Below the pieces are notes generated by a model that saw nothing but the letters and a program-made list of their open reading frames with translations, searched no databases and had not been told where the DNA came from. This document shows positions 1 through 59,128 of a DNA stretch of 64,000 nucleotides, piece after piece. Position 1 is the first letter of the stretch, and each line of letters begins with the position of its first letter. The DNA comes from Patescibacteria group bacterium (GTDB lineage: Bacteria > Patescibacteriota > Microgenomatia > UBA1400 > MFAQ01), in assembly GCA_943355005.1 (NCBI GenBank), contig CALRDV010000001.1, forward strand, positions 92,632 to 156,631, read 5' to 3'. The position numbers were made by a program, and so were the translations under genes.

Positions 1-1547
1 ATTCTTTTTACTCCACAACCTCATACCAGTTCACCAAGATTCTGTACACTTGTAATGGAAAAACCATAACGGACAATTTGCAACAGCTTTGCGACAAGTA
101 CAACACTTTCTCTTTGATTGCTGCTTCCAAGCTCGCCGACGCCGTCTATCAAGTTTCTGTTGAAGGCCTTGATGAAGTTGGTAACTCCTCACCTATCAGC
201 TTCACCTTGGTTGTAGGTAAGAATACTCCTAAACCTACACCCACTCCTAAACCTACACCCACTTCTAAACCAACTCCTACCCCCACTCCTACCCCAACTC
301 CAACTCCTACCCCCACTCCCACTGTTACAAGTACCCCAGCAGATACTCCTACTCCTACCCCCACTCCCACTCAAACCATTACCATTCAAGTAAACGACGT
401 CAACGGTCAGCCTGTCAGTGGTGTCGGTGTCATGGTCACCCCCGTTGCTCCGACTACTCTCACCGATTCCCCACCCATCACTATTCAAACCGTAACTCTC
501 ACCGCTACCGAGCCGTCTGCTACTAATACAGCTTCTTCGGGGACACAGGAAAATCTATCCATATTCGAACAATTCAAAATTGCTTTAAACAATATTATCG
601 GAGAAAAGACGAATGAAAATGGTCAAATCACTTTAGAGATTCCTCCCGGTGACTATCGGGTCAGAGTCAATGCTGCCACCGAATCCTTTATATTTCCCTC
701 GGTTCTTGCCGCGGAAACCTCGGTCACTAAGGTAGAACTACCCGTAGCTAAGAATTCTATCCAAATTGCCCCTGAGCCATTACCGGTCATCATCAAGAGT
801 TCGGAGAAAGTCTCGGAAGCGGTTGTTCAAGTCTCGGCTACTTCTGTCGCCGCCGTCACCACCTATGGGACACTCACTTCTATCATTGTTGCTATCAAAT
901 CCCTTCTCCCCATCTATGCCGAAACTGGTCGGAGTTTGGCCAGTCTTCCTCTGGACTTTCTAAACGCTTTGTCCAAGCTCGGTCTAAACTACTTTGGTAC
1001 TGGACTTACTTTTATCACCGGCAGGGTCTTTCTGAAGAGGAAGAGAGACGGGTTTGTTTTTGACAGTATTTCTCACAAGCCCATCTTCGGTGCCTATGTC
1101 CTCCTATATTCCCAGTCTGGTAATCTAGCCACGGATTTTACTGACATTGAAGGCAGATACTCCGTCAGTCCTCAGCCGGACACCTATCGTCTAAAAACTC
1201 AATCCACCGGTTTTATTTTCCCCTCAACAATTATCAGCAATGGTCAAGACATTGTTTATTCAAACGTCTACATTCCCGGTGAAGAAGTAGAAGTTGTCAA
1301 TCCCGTAGTACAGCCTGTAAGATATTCGGTAGCCATGGATCCCAAGATCTCCGGACCTATTTCAAAAGGTACAAGCTTCATACGTAGTTTACTGAAGAAA
1401 CTAAAGTATCCTCTCTACATCCTCACTTTTGTCTCCCTGTTCTTCACCTCACTCTCTCCGACTGCCGGCTACTACCGTTCCATCTTCATCATCTTCTGCA
1501 TCCACATCATCTTGAACATTTATCACAGCATTACCGCCAAGGCTTGA
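1..1547 (+). CDS. Surface/membrane protein, 5'-truncated by the window edge. It has a long (TP)n/PTPTPKPTP linker, a carboxypeptidase-regulatory-like beta-sandwich segment ([16 protein letters not shown]...TDIEGRYSV) and a C-terminal hydrophobic anchor.
   Basis: The frame of the listed ORF (78..1547, TTG start) stays open back to base 3, so the true start is upstream of the window. The linker is low-complexity Thr/Pro; the C-terminal ~45 aa are strongly hydrophobic. Confidence 0.5.
229..400 (+). repeat. Imperfect tandem ACTCCT/ACCCCC-type hexanucleotide tract encoding the (TP)n linker; could expand or contract.
   Basis: Direct reading shows cctacaccc / actcctaaa / actcctaccccc units repeated about 25 times. 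Confidence 0.6.
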
Positions 1548-1601: not shown

Positions 1602-4600
1602 ATGGAAAAAATCAAATCTGGGCTACGTTCTTTTGGTGTTAGGAATGCCATTTTGTCCCTGATAGGAATAGCTGTTATCGTCTTTGGTGTTATTTTTGCG
1701 TCCAATTATCTTCGAAGTTCTGCCCGTTCGAGGCTAGGTTCTGATGCCGGCTTGGTGCTTACAGCCGACAGAGAAGATACCCTGGGAGCCTTCACAGACA
1801 CTACCTTCACCCTGAAGTCAGACAAAGACCTGTCGGTTTCAGATGTCAAAAAGAACATCATCTTCTTCCCCGAAATCGATTTTGATGTTAGAGAAGTTGG
1901 CTCACGCCAATTTAGCATTAAGCCCAAAAACAATCTAAATGATAACAGCCTTTATCGCATCAAGATTCTTTCACAAGCCAAAACCTTTTCCTGGGCATTT
2001 CAAACGAAGAACGATTTTCGGGTTGTTCAGTCTCTTCCCAGAGACAAAGGCACCTACGTTCCCCTCAATTCCGGTATCGAAGTCACCTTTAGCCATGACA
2101 ATTGGGAAGACATAAATTTCAAAACGAATAACTTCGAAATCACCCCAAATGTTGAAGGCCGATTTGAGAGACATTCCAGAACCTTATCTTTCGTGCCCAA
2201 ATCGCTGGCTCCGGACACCTTGTATACAGTCAAAGTTAAGAAAGGTGTCGTATTAAAGGGTAGTACCGACTCGCTTAAGGAAGATTATATTTTTCAGTTC
2301 GAAACCCAGCCGGCCAGTAGGGACCAAGTCCAATTAAATCTTTCCAGAAGTTTCTACGAATTTTCTCAGGCCGAAACACCGGCCCTTGATTTGTACAGTT
2401 CGTCGCAAGGCGGTGCCGATGTCACAGTGAAAGTCTACCAGGATCCCCCTCAAGGTTTTCTGTCGGATTTAATTACCAAACTTTCCATTCCTTCGTGGGC
2501 CAACAACTCTCTTCGAAACAATCGCCGTCCGGTTTCGGGTCTCACCAAAGTACTCGAGTTTAATACTCCTATCCAGAAGCAAACTTATACCTCCTACGTG
2601 ATGTTTCCTCAGACCTTGCCAAAAGGTTATTACATTGTCGAACTTAATATTGGTAATGTCACTACCCAAGCCCTAATACAAATTACCGACATCTCGGCCT
2701 ATCTCTCGGTCAGTGGTACCAAAACAGTCGTCTGGGTAAACGATTTGAAGACTGCCGGTCCCATTTCAGGAGCCGAGGTTGTTCTTGGTGAGGTCAAGGG
2801 TACTTCAGTCGCCGACGGTACAGTTTCTTTTGATACTCCTCTGGATAAATTATCAGATATAAAATATGCCACTGTTTCCAAGGGTGATAGTAAATTATTC
2901 CTACCTCTTCAAAACTCCCGTTATTACTACGATGCTTCATACCAAAATTCTCGCCGACAGACGGATAAATACTGGAATTATTTCTATACCGATCGTCCCG
3001 CTTATCTTCCTACAGACACTCTAAAGTTCTGGGGTTTACTTAGAGATCGCGATAATCTAAGCCAGAAACAAAAATTCACCCTCGAGGTTACCAGGACAGA
3101 TTACTCAAATTGGGATTTTAACCCGGTTGTTTTATTTTCCAGAGAAATTGAGACGAGTGACTTGGGTACTTTTATCGGAGATATACCTCTGACCAATTTC
3201 AATCCTGGCTACTACGGTGTAAATCTCAAGCTCGGCAGCAACATTATTTCCAGTTCTTCTTTCTCCGTAGAGACCTACACCAAGCCGGCATACAAGATTT
3301 CTCTGAATTCACCGAAAAAGGCCTACATTATCGGTGACACTGTCACTTTTTCCGGCCAGGCAACTTTCTTCGAGGGCTCTCCGGTTCCCGGCATGAATCT
3401 CAAGTACAGCATAGGGGGAGATGAAGGAAAAATGTCCACCGACTCAATGGGGAAATACAGCTTCAATTACACTGCTGGTGTCTCGAATAACACCTACAGT
3501 TATTCTCCGGAATCTAAATATATCAATGTCTATTCTGCTCTTCAGGAAGAAGGGGAAATAAACACTAACACCTCTATTTCAGTATTTGACTCTTCATTGG
3601 TATTTGGAAATTCCAAGTCTTCTACCAAGGACCAAGCAGGCAATGTCGAGGTAGATTTGAGGCTAGTTGATACTGATAAATATGTTCAAGGTACTCCAAT
3701 TGAAGAACTTTTTGCCCCCGCTCCATCCAGACAAATTACAGGTGACCTCATGGAAAACCAATATGTAAAGAAAGAAGTTGGCACCTATTACGATTTTATT
3801 AATAAAATTACTACTCCCAGATACGAGTACAGCACAGTCCAGAATAAAATCGCTGACATCACACTGACTACCGATTCAAACGGGAAAGCTGTTTATTCAT
3901 TCCCTGCTACCAAAGGCAAGTCCTACAACGTAAGGCTAAAAGCATCAGACGATCAAGGAAGAGTTACCTCTCGGGATATTTATGTTTCCGGTTACGCTAG
4001 TGACAACTACCTAAATAGTTACCTGTATCTAAAAACGAACAAAACAGGTGAAATCCAAAATAGGTATTCGGTAGGAGAACAAGTGAGTCTTACTTTGATG
4101 AAAGGTGAGTCGGAATTAGTTACCAATTCCTCAGATAAATTCCTTTATCTCTTTGCCCAACGAGGCATCAAGTCTTATCAGATTACCTCAGGTAACAGTA
4201 TTAGTTTCAAATATTCTGATATTTTTGTGCCAAATATCAATATTACTGCGGTTCGTTTCACCGGTAAGACTTATGAGGTTGCAGAAAATATGAGTTTGTA
4301 TTTCGACACAAGTTCCAAAAAACTCTCCTTGGATGTGACCAAAGATAAAGCAACTTACCTTCCGGGGGATACTGCGAAGATTTCTGTTTTGGCCAAGGAT
4401 TTTTCCGGGAGTCCTGCCCAGGCAGAAGTAAATCTTAGTTTTGTGGATGAAGCTTACTACGCGCTTTACAGCCAGTATTTGGACCCACTTTCCCGAATTT
4501 ATTCTCAGCTCGATTCGGACATCATTGCAAGTTATCAATCTCATCGTTATCCCCTTGATAGTGGTGGTGCTGAAGGTGGTGGGTGTTTCTTGCCTGGGAC

Positions 4601-6818
4601 TCAGATTCTCATGTCGGATGGAAAAACCAAGAATATTGAAGATGTTAAAGTCGGAGATAAAGTCAAAACTCTTACTTCTTCCGATTCAGATAAATTGGTA
4701 AGCGCCAAAGTTATCAAGACATTTGTTCACAAATTAGCTGGCTATCTTGTAATAAACAATCACCTTAGAGTGACCGGTGAACACAACTTATTTATCAACG
4801 GCCGATGGATGACTGCTTTGGAAGCCAAGGTAGGGGATTCTTATCTGGACGTAAATGGTAAATATCAGGATATTTATTCCATCGAAAATTATTCGGGAAT
4901 TAATACTGTCTACAACTTTACGGTCGAGAAACTCAGCACTTATTTTGCTGATGGATTCTATGTTCACAACGACAAGGGCCGTGAACTCTTTGTAGACAAT
5001 GCCTTCTTTGGTAGTGTCAGGACCGGTGCCGATGGTCGCGCCTCAGTAGACGTGAAGCTTCCCGACAATCTTACTTCCTGGAGAATCACATCTCAGGGAA
5101 TCACGGGAGATCTGAAGGTGGGTGTCGCTCAAACTCCACTTATCGTCAAACAACCTCTCTTTGTCGATGCCGTCATGAATACTGAATATGTCATCGGAGA
5201 TCATCCACAGATTTTAGTTCGTGTCTATGGTGAAGGATTGTCTACTGGGGAAAACGTAAATGTCGTGGTTCAGTCGGATAGTTTAGGAATCTCCAAAACA
5301 TTCTCAGTTAAAGCTTTTGAATCTTCCAAAATTGATCTTGGAGTGCTAAAGGAAGGTATCCATAAAATTTCTTTCACCGGGAACTCCGGAAGTTTGTCTG
5401 ACAAACTTATTCGTAGCCTTACCGTTATCCCATCCAGATTGCAGGTTGCTAAAACGGAAAGTTCGGCTCTTACTGCTGAGACTAAGCCTGTCGGATCCTC
5501 AAATTCTCCTACCGGAATATTTATTTCAGACCTAAGTTTGGGGCGTTTCTACCCTCCACTACTGAATCTGTCATATACATGGGGAGATCGTTTGGATCAA
5601 AGAATTGCCCGTACTCTTTCTCAAGAAATTATCAAAAAAAGTTTTGATGATACTGTTATTCCGGAAAAATTGGACCTAACTTCCTTTCAGACTGGTGAAG
5701 GTGGCTACGCTCTCTTTCCATACTCCGGTTCAGATTTAGAACTATCCGCCTTTGTGGCTGCTTTGGCTGGTGATAAAGTTGATAGAGTAGGTCTTGCCAA
5801 TTATTTCTATAGAAATCTTTCAAAAATTCAGGACTCGGAAGGCTTTGCCAAATCTCTATACGGTCTAGCTTCTCTGGATGAGCCGGTTCTTCTTTTAATA
5901 AACCGTCTCGATGAGACCAAAAATCTTTCGCCTATGGCTAGGATTTATATTGGCTTAGCTCAAGCCGCCATTGGAGATACCGAGAATGCGGCTGATACCT
6001 ATCGTTCACTAATATCTGAGTTTGCCATCCCACAAGATAATCTTACTTACATGAAGGTGGGAAATGATAAGGATAGCTTTTTAAGAGCCACCGCTCTTAC
6101 TTCTGCCTTAGCTTCAGTTCTAAGTGAGAAAGAAGCTGATAGTCTTTTGGCTTATACCTTAAGTAATAGGGCCAAAGATATTCTATTAGTTTCGCCGGAA
6201 TTAATATCCATCAAGAATCAAGTTAACAATTCTGTTCCTCAGCCTGTCTCTTTTGCTTACACTTTGGGTGGTAAAAAAGTCACTAAGAGTTTAGAAAAAG
6301 GAAAAGTATTTAAGCTGGAACTTTCACCCAAAGACTTGGCGGATATCACTTTCTCTGATATTGTAGGCAGTGTGGGGATAACTTCTGCTTACTTCACTCC
6401 CTTGGATCCCAAAACAGCAACTGTAGACCCGTCGGTAAAAGTTAGTCGAAATTATTCTGTCAAAGGTAAAGATACAACCGTGTTCTCTGAGTCTGATCTT
6501 GTCAAAGTCACTCTTCCGGTTACTTATGCCGCCATTACTCAGGATGGTTGTTATCAGGTCACAGACATCCTTCCGTCGGGTCTGAAACCTGTTACATCCA
6601 TGTCATCCATGATTAGCAATGCCTATCTATACCCCTATGATATCAATGGTCAGAAGGTCAGCTTCTGTGTCTCCAAGGGCGATACGAGGAGTAGTGTGTC
6701 CTATTATGCTCGAGTGATATCGGCAGGGGATTACAGGTCGGAGAACGCAATTATTCAGTCACTCAAGGCTCCGTCAATCTTCAATTTCTCACCTGCCGGA
6801 ACCGTGAGTATCAAATGA
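1602..6818 (+). CDS. Giant (1738 aa) membrane-anchored alpha-2-macroglobulin-like protein with degenerate thioester site, carrying a Hint/bacterial-intein-like domain at the bait-region position.
   Basis: N-terminal TM helix (ILSLIGIAVIVFGVIFASNYL). A2M MG motif 'AFFGSVRTGADGRASVDVKLPDNLTSWRI...GDLKVGVAQ' (compare human A2M 'PDTITEW'). Helical TED-like region 'TGEGGYALFPY...LSAFVAALAG' in place of CGEQ. Hint domain from 'GGGCFLPGTQILMSDG' to 'FYVHN'. Confidence 0.65.
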   Translation: MEKIKSGLRSFGVRNAILSLIGIAVIVFGVIFASNYLRSSARSRLGSDAGLVLTADREDTLGAFTDTTFTLKSDKDLSVSDVKKNIIFFPEIDFDVREVGSRQFSIKPKNNLNDNSLYRIKILSQAKTFSWAFQTKNDFRVVQSLPRDKGTYVPLNSGIEVTFSHDNWEDINFKTNNFEITPNVEGRFERHSRTLSFVPKSLAPDTLYTVKVKKGVVLKGSTDSLKEDYIFQFETQPASRDQVQLNLSRSFYEFSQAETPALDLYSSSQGGADVTVKVYQDPPQGFLSDLITKLSIPSWANNSLRNNRRPVSGLTKVLEFNTPIQKQTYTSYVMFPQTLPKGYYIVELNIGNVTTQALIQITDISAYLSVSGTKTVVWVNDLKTAGPISGAEVVLGEVKGTSVADGTVSFDTPLDKLSDIKYATVSKGDSKLFLPLQNSRYYYDASYQNSRRQTDKYWNYFYTDRPAYLPTDTLKFWGLLRDRDNLSQKQKFTLEVTRTDYSNWDFNPVVLFSREIETSDLGTFIGDIPLTNFNPGYYGVNLKLGSNIISSSSFSVETYTKPAYKISLNSPKKAYIIGDTVTFSGQATFFEGSPVPGMNLKYSIGGDEGKMSTDSMGKYSFNYTAGVSNNTYSYSPESKYINVYSALQEEGEINTNTSISVFDSSLVFGNSKSSTKDQAGNVEVDLRLVDTDKYVQGTPIEELFAPAPSRQITGDLMENQYVKKEVGTYYDFINKITTPRYEYSTVQNKIADITLTTDSNGKAVYSFPATKGKSYNVRLKASDDQGRVTSRDIYVSGYASDNYLNSYLYLKTNKTGEIQNRYSVGEQVSLTLMKGESELVTNSSDKFLYLFAQRGIKSYQITSGNSISFKYSDIFVPNINITAVRFTGKTYEVAENMSLYFDTSSKKLSLDVTKDKATYLPGDTAKISVLAKDFSGSPAQAEVNLSFVDEAYYALYSQYLDPLSRIYSQLDSDIIASYQSHRYPLDSGGAEGGGCFLPGTQILMSDGKTKNIEDVKVGDKVKTLTSSDSDKLVSAKVIKTFVHKLAGYLVINNHLRVTGEHNLFINGRWMTALEAKVGDSYLDVNGKYQDIYSIENYSGINTVYNFTVEKLSTYFADGFYVHNDKGRELFVDNAFFGSVRTGADGRASVDVKLPDNLTSWRITSQGITGDLKVGVAQTPLIVKQPLFVDAVMNTEYVIGDHPQILVRVYGEGLSTGENVNVVVQSDSLGISKTFSVKAFESSKIDLGVLKEGIHKISFTGNSGSLSDKLIRSLTVIPSRLQVAKTESSALTAETKPVGSSNSPTGIFISDLSLGRFYPPLLNLSYTWGDRLDQRIARTLSQEIIKKSFDDTVIPEKLDLTSFQTGEGGYALFPYSGSDLELSAFVAALAGDKVDRVGLANYFYRNLSKIQDSEGFAKSLYGLASLDEPVLLLINRLDETKNLSPMARIYIGLAQAAIGDTENAADTYRSLISEFAIPQDNLTYMKVGNDKDSFLRATALTSALASVLSEKEADSLLAYTLSNRAKDILLVSPELISIKNQVNNSVPQPVSFAYTLGGKKVTKSLEKGKVFKLELSPKDLADITFSDIVGSVGITSAYFTPLDPKTATVDPSVKVSRNYSVKGKDTTVFSESDLVKVTLPVTYAAITQDGCYQVTDILPSGLKPVTSMSSMISNAYLYPYDINGQKVSFCVSKGDTRSSVSYYARVISAGDYRSENAIIQSLKAPSIFNFSPAGTVSIK
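4584..4970 (+). other. Hint / bacterial intein-like (BIL) domain, about 129 aa, embedded in the A2M-like protein. The flanks are DSGGAEGGG|C ... VHN|DKG, so there is no C+1 nucleophile.
   Basis: N-terminal splicing motif C-F-L-x-G-T-x-I; block B 'TGEH'; C-terminal 'VHN'. The following residue is Asp, as in BIL domains rather than canonical inteins. Confidence 0.6.
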
Positions 6819-8614
6819 AGCATCTTAAGAAGCATCTTGTCATTCCGGGCCCTGCCTTGCTAGTAGGCAGGTTGACCCGGAATCCATCTGGATTTGTAAT
6901 TGGTCTTCTGTTGTCCTTATTACTTATCGTACTTGGAATAAACATTTTACTTTCTTATAAGCCCAGAAAAACAATTTCTCTAAAGCCAACCTTCTCCACA
7001 GACTTTGCCTATGACAATCGTACTTTTCTCCACGCCGTAGCCGAAAACAAAAGTATTGGAGGTTCTATTCCGAGTGTCGTTATCCTACCCCACCATCTAC
7101 TTGCTTCCACCATTATTGCAGAAGGCATTTCGATGTTGGCGAGGCAGTCACCTAAAACTATTATTATTCTTTCTCCAAATCATGCGAATACCGGCCAGTG
7201 TGACATTGTTACTTCACGAAATAGTTGGGAGACTCCCTTTGGTCAAATGGATGTTGATCTAGATATTCAAAAGATATTTTTGGATTCCAAGATTATATGT
7301 ACAGACGACACCGCTATGCAGGTGGAGCACGGTGTAGCCGGTCTTTTGCCATTTATTAAATATTATCTACCGAACACTAAAGTTGTTCCTTTGGCACTAA
7401 AGAAAGAAATTGATCCTAATTCGTTCAAAATATTTACTCAAAAATTAATTGAAGTTTCCAAAAACTCTACCATTTTAGCCTCCATCGACTTCTCTCATGG
7501 TCTGTCTCAGAAGGAATCATTAAAGCGGGACAGCCAAACAAAAAGTTTAATTGCCAATCTTAATTATTCGGAATTAGAAAAATTATCTTCTGAGTACATA
7601 GACTCCCCAATATCTCTCATTTCTGCACTAAGTGTAATTAATTCCTATGGTTCCAAGCCCGAATTTCTCGTTCACTCCGACTCGTCAGCATTCAATAGAG
7701 ACACCAAAGATGTCACCTCATATTTTTTGATTTCCGACACACCGTCATTGCGAGGTACTCCGCGGCAATCTACCGGCTCGAACGACTCCTTCACCCTTGT
7801 CTTCGGCGGAGACGTCATGCTTGGTCGTTCTGTGAACACTCGCATGCTCAAATATTCAGATTTCACTTGGCCTTTTTTAAAAATATCAACTTTACTTTCC
7901 CAAGCAGATTTAACTCTGGTGAATCTGGAGTCGCCCTTTCGCTCTGGATGCAAAGAGTCTGATTCTGGAATGGTTTTCTGTGCGGATCCACGGTCCATCG
8001 AAGGTTTACTCGCCGCAGGAGTGGATGTTGTGAATCTGGCCAACAACCATATTGATAACCAGGGAAAAGAGGGGATAACTGAGACTTTGGAGATTTTAAA
8101 TAAGAATAATATTGTCTCTGTGGGGGTGGACCCCCGCGACCACCCAACTCCGTCAAATATTTTCACCATCAAAAACACCAAAATCGCCTTCCTCGGCTTT
8201 GACGATATTCGACCCGTCTCATCGGAAGTTACTTCTGCCACTCCGGAAAATATCAAGACTCAAATCGCTGAAGCCAAAAAGATGTCTGATCTTGTTGTAG
8301 CCACCTTTCACTGGGGAAGCGAATACAGTTCTCACAATTCCGGACAAGAATATTTGGCTCATCTAGCTATTGATTCCGGTGCCGACTTGGTCATTGGTCA
8401 TCACCCCCACTGGGTTCAGGAGTTTGAAGAATACAAAAGCAAGCCCATCTATTATTCTTTGGGAAACTTGGTCTTCGATCAAATGTGGTCCGACAAGACC
8501 AGAAATGGACTAGTTGTCAGATTCACTTACACTGGTTCCGATTTGCTCAACAGAGAAGAATTCCCCATCAAGATTTTTGACTACGGCCAACCGGCTCTGC
8601 TATACAATAAGTAG
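6815..8614 (+). CDS. Membrane-anchored fusion protein: MEMO1/AmmeMemoRadiSam-B-like domain fused to a CapA/PGA_cap metallophosphatase-like domain. The N-terminal tail is encoded by a palindromic repeat.
   Basis: Memo-like 'ILPHHLLAST...LSPNHAN...WETPFGQMDVD...VEHGVAGLLPFIKYYLP'. CapA-like 'FGGDVMLGR...NLESPF...NLANNHIDNQG...HWGSEYS...IGHHPHW'. TM 'FVIGLLLSLLLIVLGINILL'. The ATG overlaps the stop of the upstream gene (ATGA). Confidence 0.6.
   Translation: MKHLKKHLVIPGPALLVGRLTRNPSGFVIGLLLSLLLIVLGINILLSYKPRKTISLKPTFSTDFAYDNRTFLHAVAENKSIGGSIPSVVILPHHLLASTIIAEGISMLARQSPKTIIILSPNHANTGQCDIVTSRNSWETPFGQMDVDLDIQKIFLDSKIICTDDTAMQVEHGVAGLLPFIKYYLPNTKVVPLALKKEIDPNSFKIFTQKLIEVSKNSTILASIDFSHGLSQKESLKRDSQTKSLIANLNYSELEKLSSEYIDSPISLISALSVINSYGSKPEFLVHSDSSAFNRDTKDVTSYFLISDTPSLRGTPRQSTGSNDSFTLVFGGDVMLGRSVNTRMLKYSDFTWPFLKISTLLSQADLTLVNLESPFRSGCKESDSGMVFCADPRSIEGLLAAGVDVVNLANNHIDNQGKEGITETLEILNKNNIVSVGVDPRDHPTPSNIFTIKNTKIAFLGFDDIRPVSSEVTSATPENIKTQIAEAKKMSDLVVATFHWGSEYSSHNSGQEYLAHLAIDSGADLVIGHHPHWVQEFEEYKSKPIYYSLGNLVFDQMWSDKTRNGLVVRFTYTGSDLLNREEFPIKIFDYGQPALLYNK
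6839..6892 (+). repeat. GTCATTCC...GGAATCCATCTGG palindromic repeat with a nested inner palindrome, translated as 'VIPGPALLVGRLTRNPSG' at the N-terminus of the Memo/CapA gene.
   Basis: gtcattccgggccctgccttgctagtaggcaggttgacccggaatccatctgg. Confidence 0.8.
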
Positions 8615-8615
8615 T

Positions 8616-9761
8616 ATGAAAAACATCTGCCGCACTCTGGCTATCTTCCTTTCCTCATTAACATTTATTTTTCTCTTTTCCTTCCCTGCCCACGCTGTAT
8701 TTATTCAGTCAGGCAACGTTTTAGATCTACCTAAAGACAAGAAAATTGACGAATCCGTCCTAATTAGTGGTGGTACCCTCACTGTTGATTCGGACATAAA
8801 TGGTGATTTGTTGTGTGCAGGCAAGGATGTGGTGGTAAATGGAAATATCAAAGGAGATATCCTTTGTGCAGCTCAGTCAATTAAGGTCAATGGCAACGTC
8901 GACGGCAATATAAGAGTTGTAGCTCAAAATATCGAGATAACAGGTACGATTACTCGTAATTTATATTCACTGGCTCAAAATCTATCTTTATCAAAGCTTT
9001 CTTCGGTAAAAGGTGATATTTTCTTTGGAGTGCAGAATGTAGACTTGCGCGGTTCCCTTGGCAGAGATATGTTGGGAGCCGGTGACAAGATTGATATTAC
9101 CGGTTCGCTCTTACGGAACGCCAAAGTTACAGCCACCAAAATATCTGTTTCGGATCCGGCCAGGATAGGTGGTAATTTTGAGTACTATATTGATAATGCC
9201 GGTATTGCTTCTGTAAGTGCTGCAAATGTAAAAGGCGAGATTCTCAAACATGAAATTGTAAGACAAACTCCGGAGAAGAAAAATCGAGAACCAAAACCTT
9301 TCGTAATGTTTTTTGGAAAAATTTATTCAGTCATAACTTACATCGTCTTGGGATTAGTCCTTTTATATTTCCTCAAAAAAGGTATTGAGGATCGTACAGC
9401 AATTCTTGTTTCCAAACCGCTTGTGACAGGTTTAATAGGCTTAGCGGTACTTATGTTGACGCCTATTGTGTTTATTCTTCTTCTTATGACTTTCATCGGG
9501 GTACCTTTAGCTTTTGTCCTGATCATTGAGTATGTTTTGGCCATAATTACCGGGACAATCTATTCCACCATTGCCCTTGGCTGGTGGATCATGAAGAACT
9601 TGGCAAAGAGTAAAAAAGAAAGTGATGTCTGGTCCTTAGTGGTTGGAGCCATCGCCATGGGTCTACTTACAAGTATCCCTGTTCTGGGTTTCTTTGTCGG
9701 TCTTATTGCTTTATGTTTGGGTATGGGAGCCATATTTACTTCATACCTTCCCAAGAAATAA
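8616..9761 (+). CDS. Secreted or membrane protein. It has a signal peptide, bactofilin-like beta-helix repeats (V.GD/GN...I.G), and four C-terminal TM helices.
   Basis: Signal 'LAIFLSSLTFIFLFSFPAHA'. Repeats 'DINGDLLCAGKDVVVNGNIKGDILCAAQSIKVNGNVDGNIRVVAQNIEITGTI'. Hydrophobic C-terminus. I chose the start at ATG 8616 rather than the listed 8514. Confidence 0.5.
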   Translation: MKNICRTLAIFLSSLTFIFLFSFPAHAVFIQSGNVLDLPKDKKIDESVLISGGTLTVDSDINGDLLCAGKDVVVNGNIKGDILCAAQSIKVNGNVDGNIRVVAQNIEITGTITRNLYSLAQNLSLSKLSSVKGDIFFGVQNVDLRGSLGRDMLGAGDKIDITGSLLRNAKVTATKISVSDPARIGGNFEYYIDNAGIASVSAANVKGEILKHEIVRQTPEKKNREPKPFVMFFGKIYSVITYIVLGLVLLYFLKKGIEDRTAILVSKPLVTGLIGLAVLMLTPIVFILLLMTFIGVPLAFVLIIEYVLAIITGTIYSTIALGWWIMKNLAKSKKESDVWSLVVGAIAMGLLTSIPVLGFFVGLIALCLGMGAIFTSYLPKK

Positions 9762-11020: not shown

Positions 11021-11091
11021 TCGGGGTACTCAGAATTGAACTGAGATCGCGCGCACCCCATGCGCGCATACTACCGTTATACTATACCCCG
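11021..11091 (-). tRNA. tRNA-Pro (anticodon GGG), 71 nt, no encoded CCA.
   Basis: Folded by hand: acceptor CGGGGUA/UACCCCG, D-arm GUAU-AACGGUA-GUAU (with G-U pairs), anticodon stem CGCGC/GCGCG with loop AUGGGGU (U33, GGG, G37), T-arm CUCAG-UUCAAUU-CUGAG, discriminator A. Confidence 0.7.
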
Positions 11092-18910: not shown

Positions 18911-18926
18911 AGAACCCTTTCGGGTT
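18911..18926. terminator. Bidirectional hairpin terminator. On the minus strand it reads GAACCCGAAAGGGUUC + UUUUU at the rnpB 3' end; on the plus strand it follows 18297..18902.
   Basis: aaaccaaaaagaaccctttcgggttc. Confidence 0.6.
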
Positions 18927-19236
18927 CCCTAGGACAATAAGCCGGATTCTGTCGTGGAGGAATATCTATCTATGCTCGAGACTTTAGGGACGGAAAAGAC
19001 ACCTTAATCCCAATTCGTCGATTGCAGCAGGGCGGGTTACCACTCCTCTAGGATTTCTCCTAGCGGATCTCCACCTAGCGGTGGAACGTTTCACCTTTAA
19101 TCGTCTCTGTGGCCCTATCGTGCCCTGTAGGTCGCCCCACAAGGAGCCGGGTTTCCCCGGCCACCCTTTCTTTTAGCTGTCCGGACTTTCCTCCCCACTC
19201 TTGCGAGTAGGGCATTCCTCTCGTCCTAGGGAAGCC
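18921..19236 (-). ncRNA. rnpB: RNase P RNA (bacterial type, reduced size, about 316 nt).
   Basis: The minus strand contains P4 5' strand 'GGAGGAAAGUCCGGAC', P4 3' strand 'ACAGAAUCCGGCUUA', 'AAGGUGAAACG', 'GGUAACCCGCC', and a P1 helix UCCCUAGGAC/GUCCUAGGGA. High GC in an AT-rich genome. Confidence 0.8.
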
Positions 19237-59056: not shown

Positions 59057-59128
59057 TTGCCGAGCTAGGACTCGAACCTAGAATATTCGCCTCCAGAGGG
59101 CGACGTCCTACCATTAGACGACTCGGCA
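59057..59128 (-). tRNA. tRNA-Gln (anticodon CUG), 72 nt, no encoded CCA.
   Basis: Hand fold: acceptor UGCCGAG/CUCGGCA (U1-A72), D-arm GUCU-AAUGGUA-GGAC, anticodon stem UCGCC/GGCGA with loop CUCUGGA, T-arm CUAGG-UUCGAGU-CCUAG. Confidence 0.8.

Follow-up and report, generated by a model that had tools for sequence, protein, structure and literature searches.

A predicted self-processing Hint domain in the bait loop of a membrane-anchored, alpha-2-macroglobulin-like protein of Patescibacteria

Members of the alpha-2-macroglobulin (A2M) family, such as A2M itself, the complement proteins C3/C4/C5, the TEPs, CD109, ECAM and MagD, need an external protease to cut one loop before they can switch. 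The bait region of Escherichia coli ECAM, which includes Arg923-Leu942, is lost on cleavage by elastase, and residues 956-963 of the cleaved bait dock onto the C-terminal MG domain (PMC4498604). MagD of Pseudomonas aeruginosa, a type II A2M without the CXEQ thioester motif, is cut in its bait region into pieces of 91 and 74 kDa that remain associated; its processing in vivo depends on MagB being present (PMC5764988). Type-A bacterial intein-like (BIL) domains, on the other side, form a thioester at their N-terminus and cut their C-terminus by Asn cyclisation (PMC4031507, PMC7664689, PMC7765530). When no nucleophile follows the domain at position +1, no branched intermediate arises and mainly N- and C-cleavage products are obtained (PMC4031507, PMC7664689), together with some ligation through attack of the freed alpha-amine (PMC4031507, PMC7664689, PMC7765530), and a single substitution turns these domains into efficient splicers (PMC7664689). 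Known BIL and pretoxin Hint (PT-HINT) domains either reside within hypervariable parts of secreted, non-conserved proteins or directly precede toxin cargo (PMC7765530). In this study, an A2M-like protein is described in which the same loop carries its own predicted cutting enzyme, a Hint domain that has been kept across a large part of the candidate phyla radiation (CPR)/Patescibacteria, tiny bacteria of groundwater. The corresponding gene is located at positions 1602-6818 of a 64,000-nt stretch (the window) on contig CALRDV010000001.1 of a Patescibacteria group bacterium (GCA_943355005.1).

The gene product was confirmed as a member of the A2M superfamily with an N-terminal membrane anchor. 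Domains were called as Pfam matches above gathering scores, with NCBIfam as second profile library; A2M_BRD, A2M, MG2, Big_5 and PT-HINT all exceeded their cutoffs (Table 1), accompanied by weak matches to bMG3, bMG6 and bMG10. Global profile alignment (hhalign) to E. coli YfhM/ECAM covered 1,446 columns with a probability of 99.6% (E=1e-23). Searched against the PDB, the family profile matched ECAM (E=4.5e-19), Salmonella A2M (4u48, residues 357-601 of the query), mosquito TEP1, CD109, complement C5 (MG5-MG6) and human A2M. Furthermore, an AlphaFold model of residues 560-1738 (mc34292d1e55e), computed from a 43-sequence alignment with a mean predicted local distance difference test (pLDDT) value of 84.9 and a predicted template modelling score (pTM) of 0.60, showed beta-domains, an 11-helix domain (1313-1542) and further beta-domains in the order expected for an A2M. 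Its top Foldseek matches were ECAM (2.9e-45) and Salmonella A2M (7.4e-44), followed by A2ML1, C4, A2M, CD109, TEP1, C3 and C5. The order known from A2M/TEP proteins (MG domains, bait-region domain, MG7, CUB, helical TED, CUB and C-terminal MG domain) is present, and the Cys1650/Cys1689 pair in the C-terminal MG domain is conserved in the family alignment. A first-pass annotation of this DNA had recognized a 1738-residue reading frame with the layout of a bacterial A2M and a membrane anchor at its N-terminus. Both points were corroborated, the anchor consisting of a 19-residue hydrophobic segment at which no lipobox Cys was found. The objection that the regions flanking the Hint might be generic Ig-like repeats does not hold, as these regions match the A2M family by profile and by AlphaFold/Foldseek comparison.

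The model superposed better on A2M structures activated by protease or methylamine (4rtd, 9fx3, 7q61, 6tav; TMq 0.36-0.42) than on structures in the native state (5a42, 4u48, 7von, 8s3o, 7s62, 7s63, 9u61; TMq 0.21-0.29). This difference was not relied on and may be an artefact, since the first 559 residues are missing from the model and the activated structures are truncated, too.

Within this scaffold, the Pfam models Vint, Hom_end_hint and Hint begin at residue 994/995, and the NCBIfam model intein_Cterm matches residues 1103-1123. The Hint catalytic residues are Cys995, Thr1058-x-x-His1061 and His1122-Asn1123. Sequence motifs highlighted in the first-pass annotation were located at the residues claimed (arrows mark the Hint boundaries), namely GGG↓CFLPGTQILMSDG (GGG↓CFLPG, Cys995), TGEH (1058-1061), FYVHN↓D (Asn1123, Asp1124) and AFFGSVRTGADGRASVDVKLPDNLTSWRI (the KLPDNLTSWR segment), and its proposal of a complete Hint of ~129 residues with BIL-like features (Cys1, TxxH, terminal His-Asn and a non-nucleophilic +1 residue) was substantiated.

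Conservation of these residues was followed in three sets of sequences, i.e., the 120 best homologs, the 50%-identity clusters resulting from a HMMER search with the Hint, and the best 80 of at least 571 stretches from GTDB species genomes that encode a relative; the ranking of these 80 loci favours Hint-bearing genes, since the query included the Hint. Cys1, TxxH and the terminal His-Asn were found in 100% of 64 relatives and of 65 further sequences as well as in 78 of 79 loci, the lone exception being a masked sequence. The residue preceding the Hint (-1) is Gly in more than 95% of the relatives (61/64 and 63/65). At +1, which is Asp1124 in the query, Asp, Glu or Gln alone account for about 90% of the family and, together with rare Asn, Ala, Met, Ile or Lys, for ~95%, whereas Ser or Thr occur in ~5% (4/64, 2/65 and 4/79 loci).

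Among solved structures, the Hint segment matched best the pretoxin Hint of an ADP-ribosyltransferase toxin (6y75/6tmm, 1e-17) and a Clostridium thermocellum BIL domain (2lwy, 7.5e-16), with RecA and other mini-inteins scoring well behind in the PDB profile search. The Hint fold, the N-terminal Cys nucleophile, the block-B TxxH and a C-terminal His-Asn without Cys, Ser or Thr at +1 agree with the BIL/PT-HINT group. A canonical class 1 intein would have Cys, Ser or Thr in place of Asp1124, and a canonical mobile intein would show an endonuclease or horizontal mobility; neither of these was seen, and Pfam revealed no homing endonuclease in the 129-aa Hint. Likewise, a Hedgehog-type Hog domain would feature an adduct-recognition region and no C-terminal Asn cleavage, whereas the invariant His-Asn runs straight into the MG7 domain of the host. 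Judged by its sequence, the domain has the features of a type-A BIL (Cys1, terminal His-Asn, no +1 nucleophile, no endonuclease and an extracytoplasmic host protein), and it is very probably catalytically active. It departs from the BIL/PT-HINT group in its location, which is neither a hypervariable region of a secreted protein nor a position just before a toxin, but a fixed site in a conserved protein.

Homologs are automatically labelled in databases as 'hypothetical protein', 'Ig-like domain-containing protein', 'polymorphic toxin-type HINT domain-containing protein' or 'YfaS (alpha-2-macroglobulin family)'. The polymorphic-toxin reading implied by some NCBI labels was rejected, because MG7, CUB, TED and MG domains come after the Hint and Pfam analysis of the 1738-aa protein detected no toxin domain downstream of it. 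In an exhaustive HMMER search, the nearest relatives of the Hint outside A2M-like proteins (35-45% identity) were proteins with two to nine tandem Hints. In these proteins (P0122-P0143, e.g., P0125, P0126 and P0129), copies are 2-6 residues apart ('VHN↓KGG(G)↓CF'), a spacing that places Cys1 of the next Hint shortly after the end of the previous one. They include a pilin-like N_methyl protein, which has two Hints, as well as proteins with Big_9/cadherin domains.

The insertion site was determined by comparison with A2M proteins of known structure. In the hhalign alignment, residues 995-1123 form a single large insertion opposite ECAM ~948-965. The segment right after the Hint matches human A2M 729-800, directly following the bait, and CD109 690-847. 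The placement of the Hint at the bait-region position therefore stands, the domain ending where the post-bait segment of human A2M starts. The only long disordered stretches of the AlphaFold model are the linkers flanking the Hint (976-993 and 1124-1132, pLDDT <50). A disordered loop is present between the bait-region domain and MG7; however, this loop is conserved in sequence, measures only ~13 residues without the Hint and is occupied by it in the query. At the equivalent site, Hint-free relatives possess a conserved Gly-rich motif of 13-16 residues, GAE[R/K/Q]GG[D/E]GG (33-39% Gly), and loop lengths among Hint-free members range from 13 to 52 aa. The Hint splits this motif at AExGG↓[D/E]GG, as is evident from the query sequence AEGGG↓C...HN↓DKG compared to AERGG-DGG in Hint-free proteins.

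These observations modify two earlier ideas. A Hint taking the place of a protease bait is not what the family displays, since Hint-free relatives have a short conserved Gly motif and the Hint is inserted within it. Asp at +1 had been regarded as a BIL trait; the +1 residue is indeed non-nucleophilic, but an acidic residue is also present in the Hint-free motif, so that +1 Asp/Glu looks host-derived rather than a BIL hallmark and is, as deduced from the alignment, probably ancestral to the host. The bait loop of Hint-free members (P0036-P0119, equivalent to positions 4554-4997) is conserved and not variable, a property that would fit a dedicated recognition or processing site better than a bait for a broad range of proteases.

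Homologs with and without the insertion were encountered. A Hint at the same site was present in 65 of the 120 best homologs (query included), down to 31% host identity. The exhaustive HMMER search contributed another 65 clusters (50% identity), whose proteins are ~1,700-1,900 aa long and have one Hint each, located upstream of PDN[LI]TSW, and in 79 of the best 80 GTDB loci the Hint lies 30-36 residues ahead of this motif. In total, the Hint-bearing design is represented by about 130 protein clusters. An in-frame Hint at one site across homologs, loci and clusters is not a chance match or an assembly artefact. Nearly all of the best 80 loci belong to Patescibacteria/CPR, with Collierbacteria being closest (62-65% identity), followed by Uhr-, Magasanik-, Peregrini-, Falkow-, Kerfeld-, Moran-, Gracili-, Doudna- and Peribacteria; Hint-free members with names are mostly Dehalococcoidia. 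Many contigs with this gene, which is typical of CPR (L005, L007, L008, L010, L026, L030 and others), are titled 'uncultured Pseudomonadales/Gammaproteobacteria bacterium' (TPA), although the encoded proteins are 60-74% identical to those of Collierbacteria, and one (L035) is titled 'Nanoarchaeia archaeon'; such titles look like misassigned taxonomy.

Divergence of the Hint follows that of its host. Distances between Hints correlate with those between their hosts (Mantel r=0.77, a value reached in 0 of 2000 permutations), the Hint changing more slowly than the host (slope 0.58), and the GC content at third codon positions (GC3) is 0.395 for the Hint and 0.402 +/- 0.065 for the gene. Neither direct repeats flanking the Hint nor a second Hint in the window were found. 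A recent mobile insertion was rejected on the basis of the normal GC3, the missing repeats, the single copy in the window and the host-congruent divergence; by these sequence comparisons the Hint is old, maintained and vertically inherited with its host. At its deep branches, the neighbour-joining tree fits one ancient gain with losses just as well as a few separate gains. The Hint-free P0022 and P0024 group in the tree as sisters with the Hint-bearing P0016 and P0017, and P0024 occupies the locus syntenic to that of the window gene (A2M-like, Memo+PGA_cap, bactofilin, RecA). Both have AEGGGGGGG(G)SLF at the junction, as if the Hint and the next two residues had been deleted recently and slightly imprecisely. 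These Hint-free orthologs (L002/L003) and a further one (L053) are nested among Hint-bearing Collierbacteria-like sequences, at the syntenic locus. Two other members (P0075 and P0080) have Thr at +1 and 'GAEKG' duplicated on both sides of the Hint (...GAEKG↓C...VHN↓TTGAEKGGGP...); they could be genuine splicers or relics of an insertion-site duplication.

The thioester of type I A2Ms, an internal CXEQ motif in the TED, is missing. ECAM 'YPYG-CLEQ' (Cys1187) lines up with 'YTWG-DRLDQ' (1325-1333) in hhalign; hence, Cys1187 is replaced by Asp-Arg and no thioester is possible. In the family alignment, none of 120 members has Cys at the equivalent position (three have a Cys a few residues off the aligned site), and the consensus G-D-R-[LVI]-[DE]-Q is shared by Hint-bearing and Hint-free members alike. 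The first-pass annotation was right about the loss of the thioester but had placed the degenerate site at TGEGGY (1364-1369). This assignment was rejected, as ECAM CLEQ maps to DRLDQ (1329-1333, following Gly1328), whereas TGEGGY aligns to ECAM 'RDNGGF' and is part of a family-wide 'YQT-x-DGG-(I/L)-x-L-(F/L)-PY' repeat. Judged by the alignment, the protein shares the lack of a thioester with type II bacterial A2Ms. Since Hint-free relatives also lack the thioester, the presence of the Hint is uncorrelated with its loss, which weakens the idea that the Hint compensates for it.

Based on these findings, the protein is proposed, with a probability of roughly 60%, to be a thioester-less, type-II-like A2M whose type-A BIL/pretoxin Hint excises itself after export, with cleavage as the dominant outcome and a conformational switch. 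According to this model, the protein would sit outside the CPR cell, held by a single N-terminal transmembrane helix, with the Hint as a permanent part of the short Gly-rich loop that joins the bait-region domain to MG7. Once the protein has been exported by the Sec route and has folded, Cys995 would attack the Gly994 carbonyl (N-S acyl shift) and form a backbone thioester; Asn1123, aided by His1122, would then cyclise and cut the chain before Asp1124. Without Cys, Ser or Thr at +1, the efficient branch pathway of inteins would be closed, and the Hint would leave behind mostly two non-covalently associated chains, i.e., the N-fragment (1-994, 111 kDa), which stays bound to the membrane and ends in ...AEGGG, and the C-fragment (1124-1738, 66 kDa), which begins with DKGRELF.... 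Aminolysis may religate a small part of the protein. The Hint would thereby represent a built-in stand-in for the protease cut of the bait loop in ECAM and MagD, converting a precursor into a mature or activated two-chain form.

Excision is favoured over a Hedgehog-type reaction at the N-junction only, because the chemistries of both junctions are conserved, and the persistent absence of a +1 nucleophile, even though one substitution would give efficient splicing, points to two chains as the main product. Moreover, the loop tolerates 13-52 residues and loss of the Hint is viable yet rare, which argues that selection keeps the Hint and that it is not a trapped parasite. Some observations weigh against this proposal. 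The acidic +1 residue belongs to the ancestral motif, and its conservation may reflect a need of the host instead of selection against splicing. Religation would recreate the AExGG[D/E]GG motif, as it would with a classical intein, and conservation of the catalytic residues is also expected of a 'trapped' selfish mini-intein that must exit for host function. In addition, Hint-free relatives with only a short conserved Gly loop imply that the whole clade may not consist of bait-and-trap inhibitors.

A domesticated or trapped mini-intein is one alternative, in which the selected outcome is ligation by aminolysis to a single chain with the AEGGG-DKG loop restored, and the Hint has no other role. 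This explanation appears doubtful. It would account for the splitting of a conserved host motif that splicing regenerates, for the conservation of every splicing-relevant residue, for the ~5% of members with Ser/Thr at +1, including the two with Thr and a duplicated GAEKG on either side, and for the two lineages that dropped the Hint and retained the gene. Splicing of type-A BILs without a +1 nucleophile is on record (PMC4031507), so that the earlier claim of autoproteolysis instead of splicing is likely to apply but not certain. Conversely, ~95% of the family do without a +1 nucleophile despite the single-substitution route to efficient splicing (PMC7664689), and characterised BILs yield mainly cleavage products. 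Vertical inheritance without a homing endonuclease and an exported host protein, unusual for inteins, do not favour ligation either, and loss of a useless element from an indel-tolerant loop would be expected in far more than ~2 of 65 lineages. A self-triggering A2M, in which an external nucleophile (the lysine of a protease, an amine of the cell wall or a lipid) resolves the Gly994 thioester or cleavage is gated by an environmental cue such as redox state, pH or metal, is quite unlikely. In the former case, Hedgehog-like transfer would replace the lost CXEQ warhead, and in the latter the macroglobulin 'snap' would be fired by chemistry instead of a protease. The specific version in which the Gly994-Cys995 thioester serves as a substitute reactive thioester and covalently couples the N-fragment to a target is very unlikely. 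In its favour, the family has lost CXEQ, the Hint is positioned where a protease would engage the bait, its G↓CF junction resembles those of Hedgehog and pretoxin-Hint domains, and Hint thioesters are known to pass to external nucleophiles (Hedgehog; PMC7664689), but Hint-free relatives miss the thioester as well, no adduct-recognition region equivalent to the sterol-recognition region of Hedgehog is present, and the 100% conserved His-Asn is needless for transfer at the N-junction and absent in Hedgehog domains. Finally, a catalytically silent Hint acting as a structural or binding module, e.g., a plug or ligand-binding knob in the bait loop, would fit a domain that is more conserved than the host average and whose flexible flanking linkers resemble those of a displayed domain. 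This is extremely unlikely, as the invariant positions are the catalytic and fold-core residues of inteins and BILs (Cys1, TxxH, His-Asn and Gly at -1), which is unexpected for a structural domain.

Table 1. Features of the A2M-like protein and its surroundings in the window (nucleotide positions refer to the window; residues refer to the A2M-like protein unless otherwise stated).
Feature	Residues	Positions	Strand	Basis
A2M-like protein gene, complete including stop codon; 1738 aa, 191.8 kDa		1602..6818	+	Open reading frame list, translation
N-terminal transmembrane anchor (AILSLIGIAVIVFGVIFAS)	16-34	1647..1703	+	Kyte-Doolittle 2.7, highest window of the protein
N-terminal Ig-like/MG domains: Big_5, bMG3 (weak), MG2	138-235, 361-437, 460-556	2013..3269	+	Pfam; Big_5 33.0 bits (cutoff 23.6), MG2 38.8 bits (cutoff 32.8)
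A2M bait-region domain A2M_BRD	820-955	4059..4466	+	Pfam E=3.9e-12, 47.1 bits (cutoff 22.7); matches ECAM ~780-900
Gly-rich pre-Hint linker LDSGGAEGGG, with the N-terminal half of the ancestral motif AExGG↓[D/E]GG; Gly994 is the -1 residue	985-994	4554..4583	+	pLDDT <50 (976-993), comparison with Hint-free motif
Predicted Hint/BIL-type autoprocessing domain, 14.5 kDa	995-1123	4584..4970	+	Pfam (PT-HINT 1009-1123, 37.5 bits, cutoff 27.7), NCBIfam, PDB profile matches, conservation
Post-Hint linker DKGRELFVD; Asp1124 is the +1 residue	1124-1132	4971..4997	+	pLDDT <50
A2M domain PF00207 (MG7 equivalent) with invariant KLPDNLTSWR motif	1135-1221	5004..5264	+	Pfam E=1.1e-10, 41.6 bits (cutoff 21)
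Helical TED-like domain, 11 predicted helices, CUB-like beta segments on either side	1313-1542	5538..6227	+	AlphaFold model, pLDDT mostly >85; ECAM TED alignment
Thioester-equivalent site YTWGDRLDQ	1325-1333	5574..5600	+	hhalign to ECAM
C-terminal MG domain (bMG10/CTMG)	1612-1737	6435..6812	+	Weak Pfam bMG10; ECAM 1304-1608 match, E=4.5e-19; beta strands in the model
Protein with long Pro-Thr-rich linker, CarboxypepD_reg and C-terminal hydrophobic segment	~467-489 (hydrophobic segment, own numbering)	78-1547	+	Upstream open reading frame
Membrane-anchored Memo + PGA_cap fusion, downstream of the A2M-like gene		6815..8614	+	Pfam Memo 4.8e-24, PGA_cap 1.1e-62
Bactofilin-domain protein with strongly hydrophobic segments		8514-9761	+	Downstream gene
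tRNA gene		11021-11091	-	
Class A bacterial RNase P RNA		18922-19232	-	119.7 bits
tRNA gene		59057-59128	-	

The gene for the Memo+PGA_cap protein overlaps the stop codon of the A2M-like gene by 4 bp, and its product has an N-terminal transmembrane segment of its own (residues ~27-47). A Memo gene directly downstream on the same strand was observed in 50 of 72 related loci, and fusion of Memo to PGA_cap/CapA in the window and in 23 loci. Linkage to pbpC, as in type I, or to magABCDEF/yfaSTPQA, as in type II A2Ms, was not found among the neighbours, which encode the CarboxypepD_reg protein, Memo+PGA_cap, bactofilin and RecA; the yfhM-pbpC pair of E. coli served as comparison. The CarboxypepD_reg gene probably encodes another surface protein, and its true start may precede the window. 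The bactofilin ortholog in one related locus (L002) also has a DUF8173 domain and keeps its place after Memo/PGA_cap in the locus of the Hint-free ortholog. The surroundings correspond to ordinary chromosome, as indicated by RecA, RNase P RNA and tRNAs.

A full-text literature search, with most subscription journals outside its coverage, retrieved no description of an A2M with a Hint, BIL or intein insertion, in agreement with the first-pass annotation, for which no such fusion was known. It is the combination and the position of a known fold family and a known autoprocessing domain, conserved across much of the CPR, that would be new. If the Hint is active, the protein would be the first macroglobulin maturing or firing autonomously. 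It would also be a rare case of a BIL/Hint fixed at a single site of a conserved protein over deep time, and as such clear evidence for domestication and against parasitism, and would provide a genetically encoded handle on the A2M conformational switch without added protease. Moreover, together with the conserved membrane-anchored Memo partner, it would offer a clue to CPR cell-surface biology.

Compared to known systems, the type I A2Ms ECAM and SaA2M are the best structural and profile matches; they share the domain order, and the Hint maps into the ECAM bait region. However, ECAM possesses the CLEQ thioester (Cys1187), a ~40-residue protease-sensitive bait, a lipoprotein anchor and pbpC as partner (PMC4498604), none of which applies to the window protein. 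Type II A2Ms (MagD and E. coli YfaS) are likewise large, membrane-associated proteins with MG, BRD, MG7, CUB, TED and C-terminal MG domains and without CXEQ. In contrast to these, the loop of the window protein is short, Gly-rich, conserved and interrupted by the Hint, its anchor is an N-terminal transmembrane helix, its partner is Memo with or without PGA_cap and not a magABCDEF/yfaSTPQA operon, and its host is a CPR bacterium. CPR bacteria are generally considered to be devoid of an outer membrane. The MagD fragments of 91 and 74 kDa compare with predicted fragments of 111 and 66 kDa for the window protein.

With type-A BIL/PT-HINT domains (2lwy; 6y75/6tmm), the ~130-aa Hint fold, Cys1, TxxH, His-Asn, the missing +1 nucleophile, the missing endonuclease and the extracytoplasmic setting are shared, whereas the window Hint resides at one fixed site of a conserved, housekeeping-like surface protein, is inherited vertically across many CPR lineages and has no toxin cargo. 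In the C3 structure described by Janssen et al. in 2005, an extra domain (ANA) is reportedly inserted at the equivalent inter-MG6 site of C3/C4/C5. These proteins are cut at that site during maturation or activation, which results in associated beta and alpha chains. Cutting is performed by furin and convertases and not by a built-in autoprocessing domain, and C3 and C4 keep the thioester. The furin and convertase cuts of C3/C4/C5 are a parallel to the self-cleavage proposed here for the Hint.

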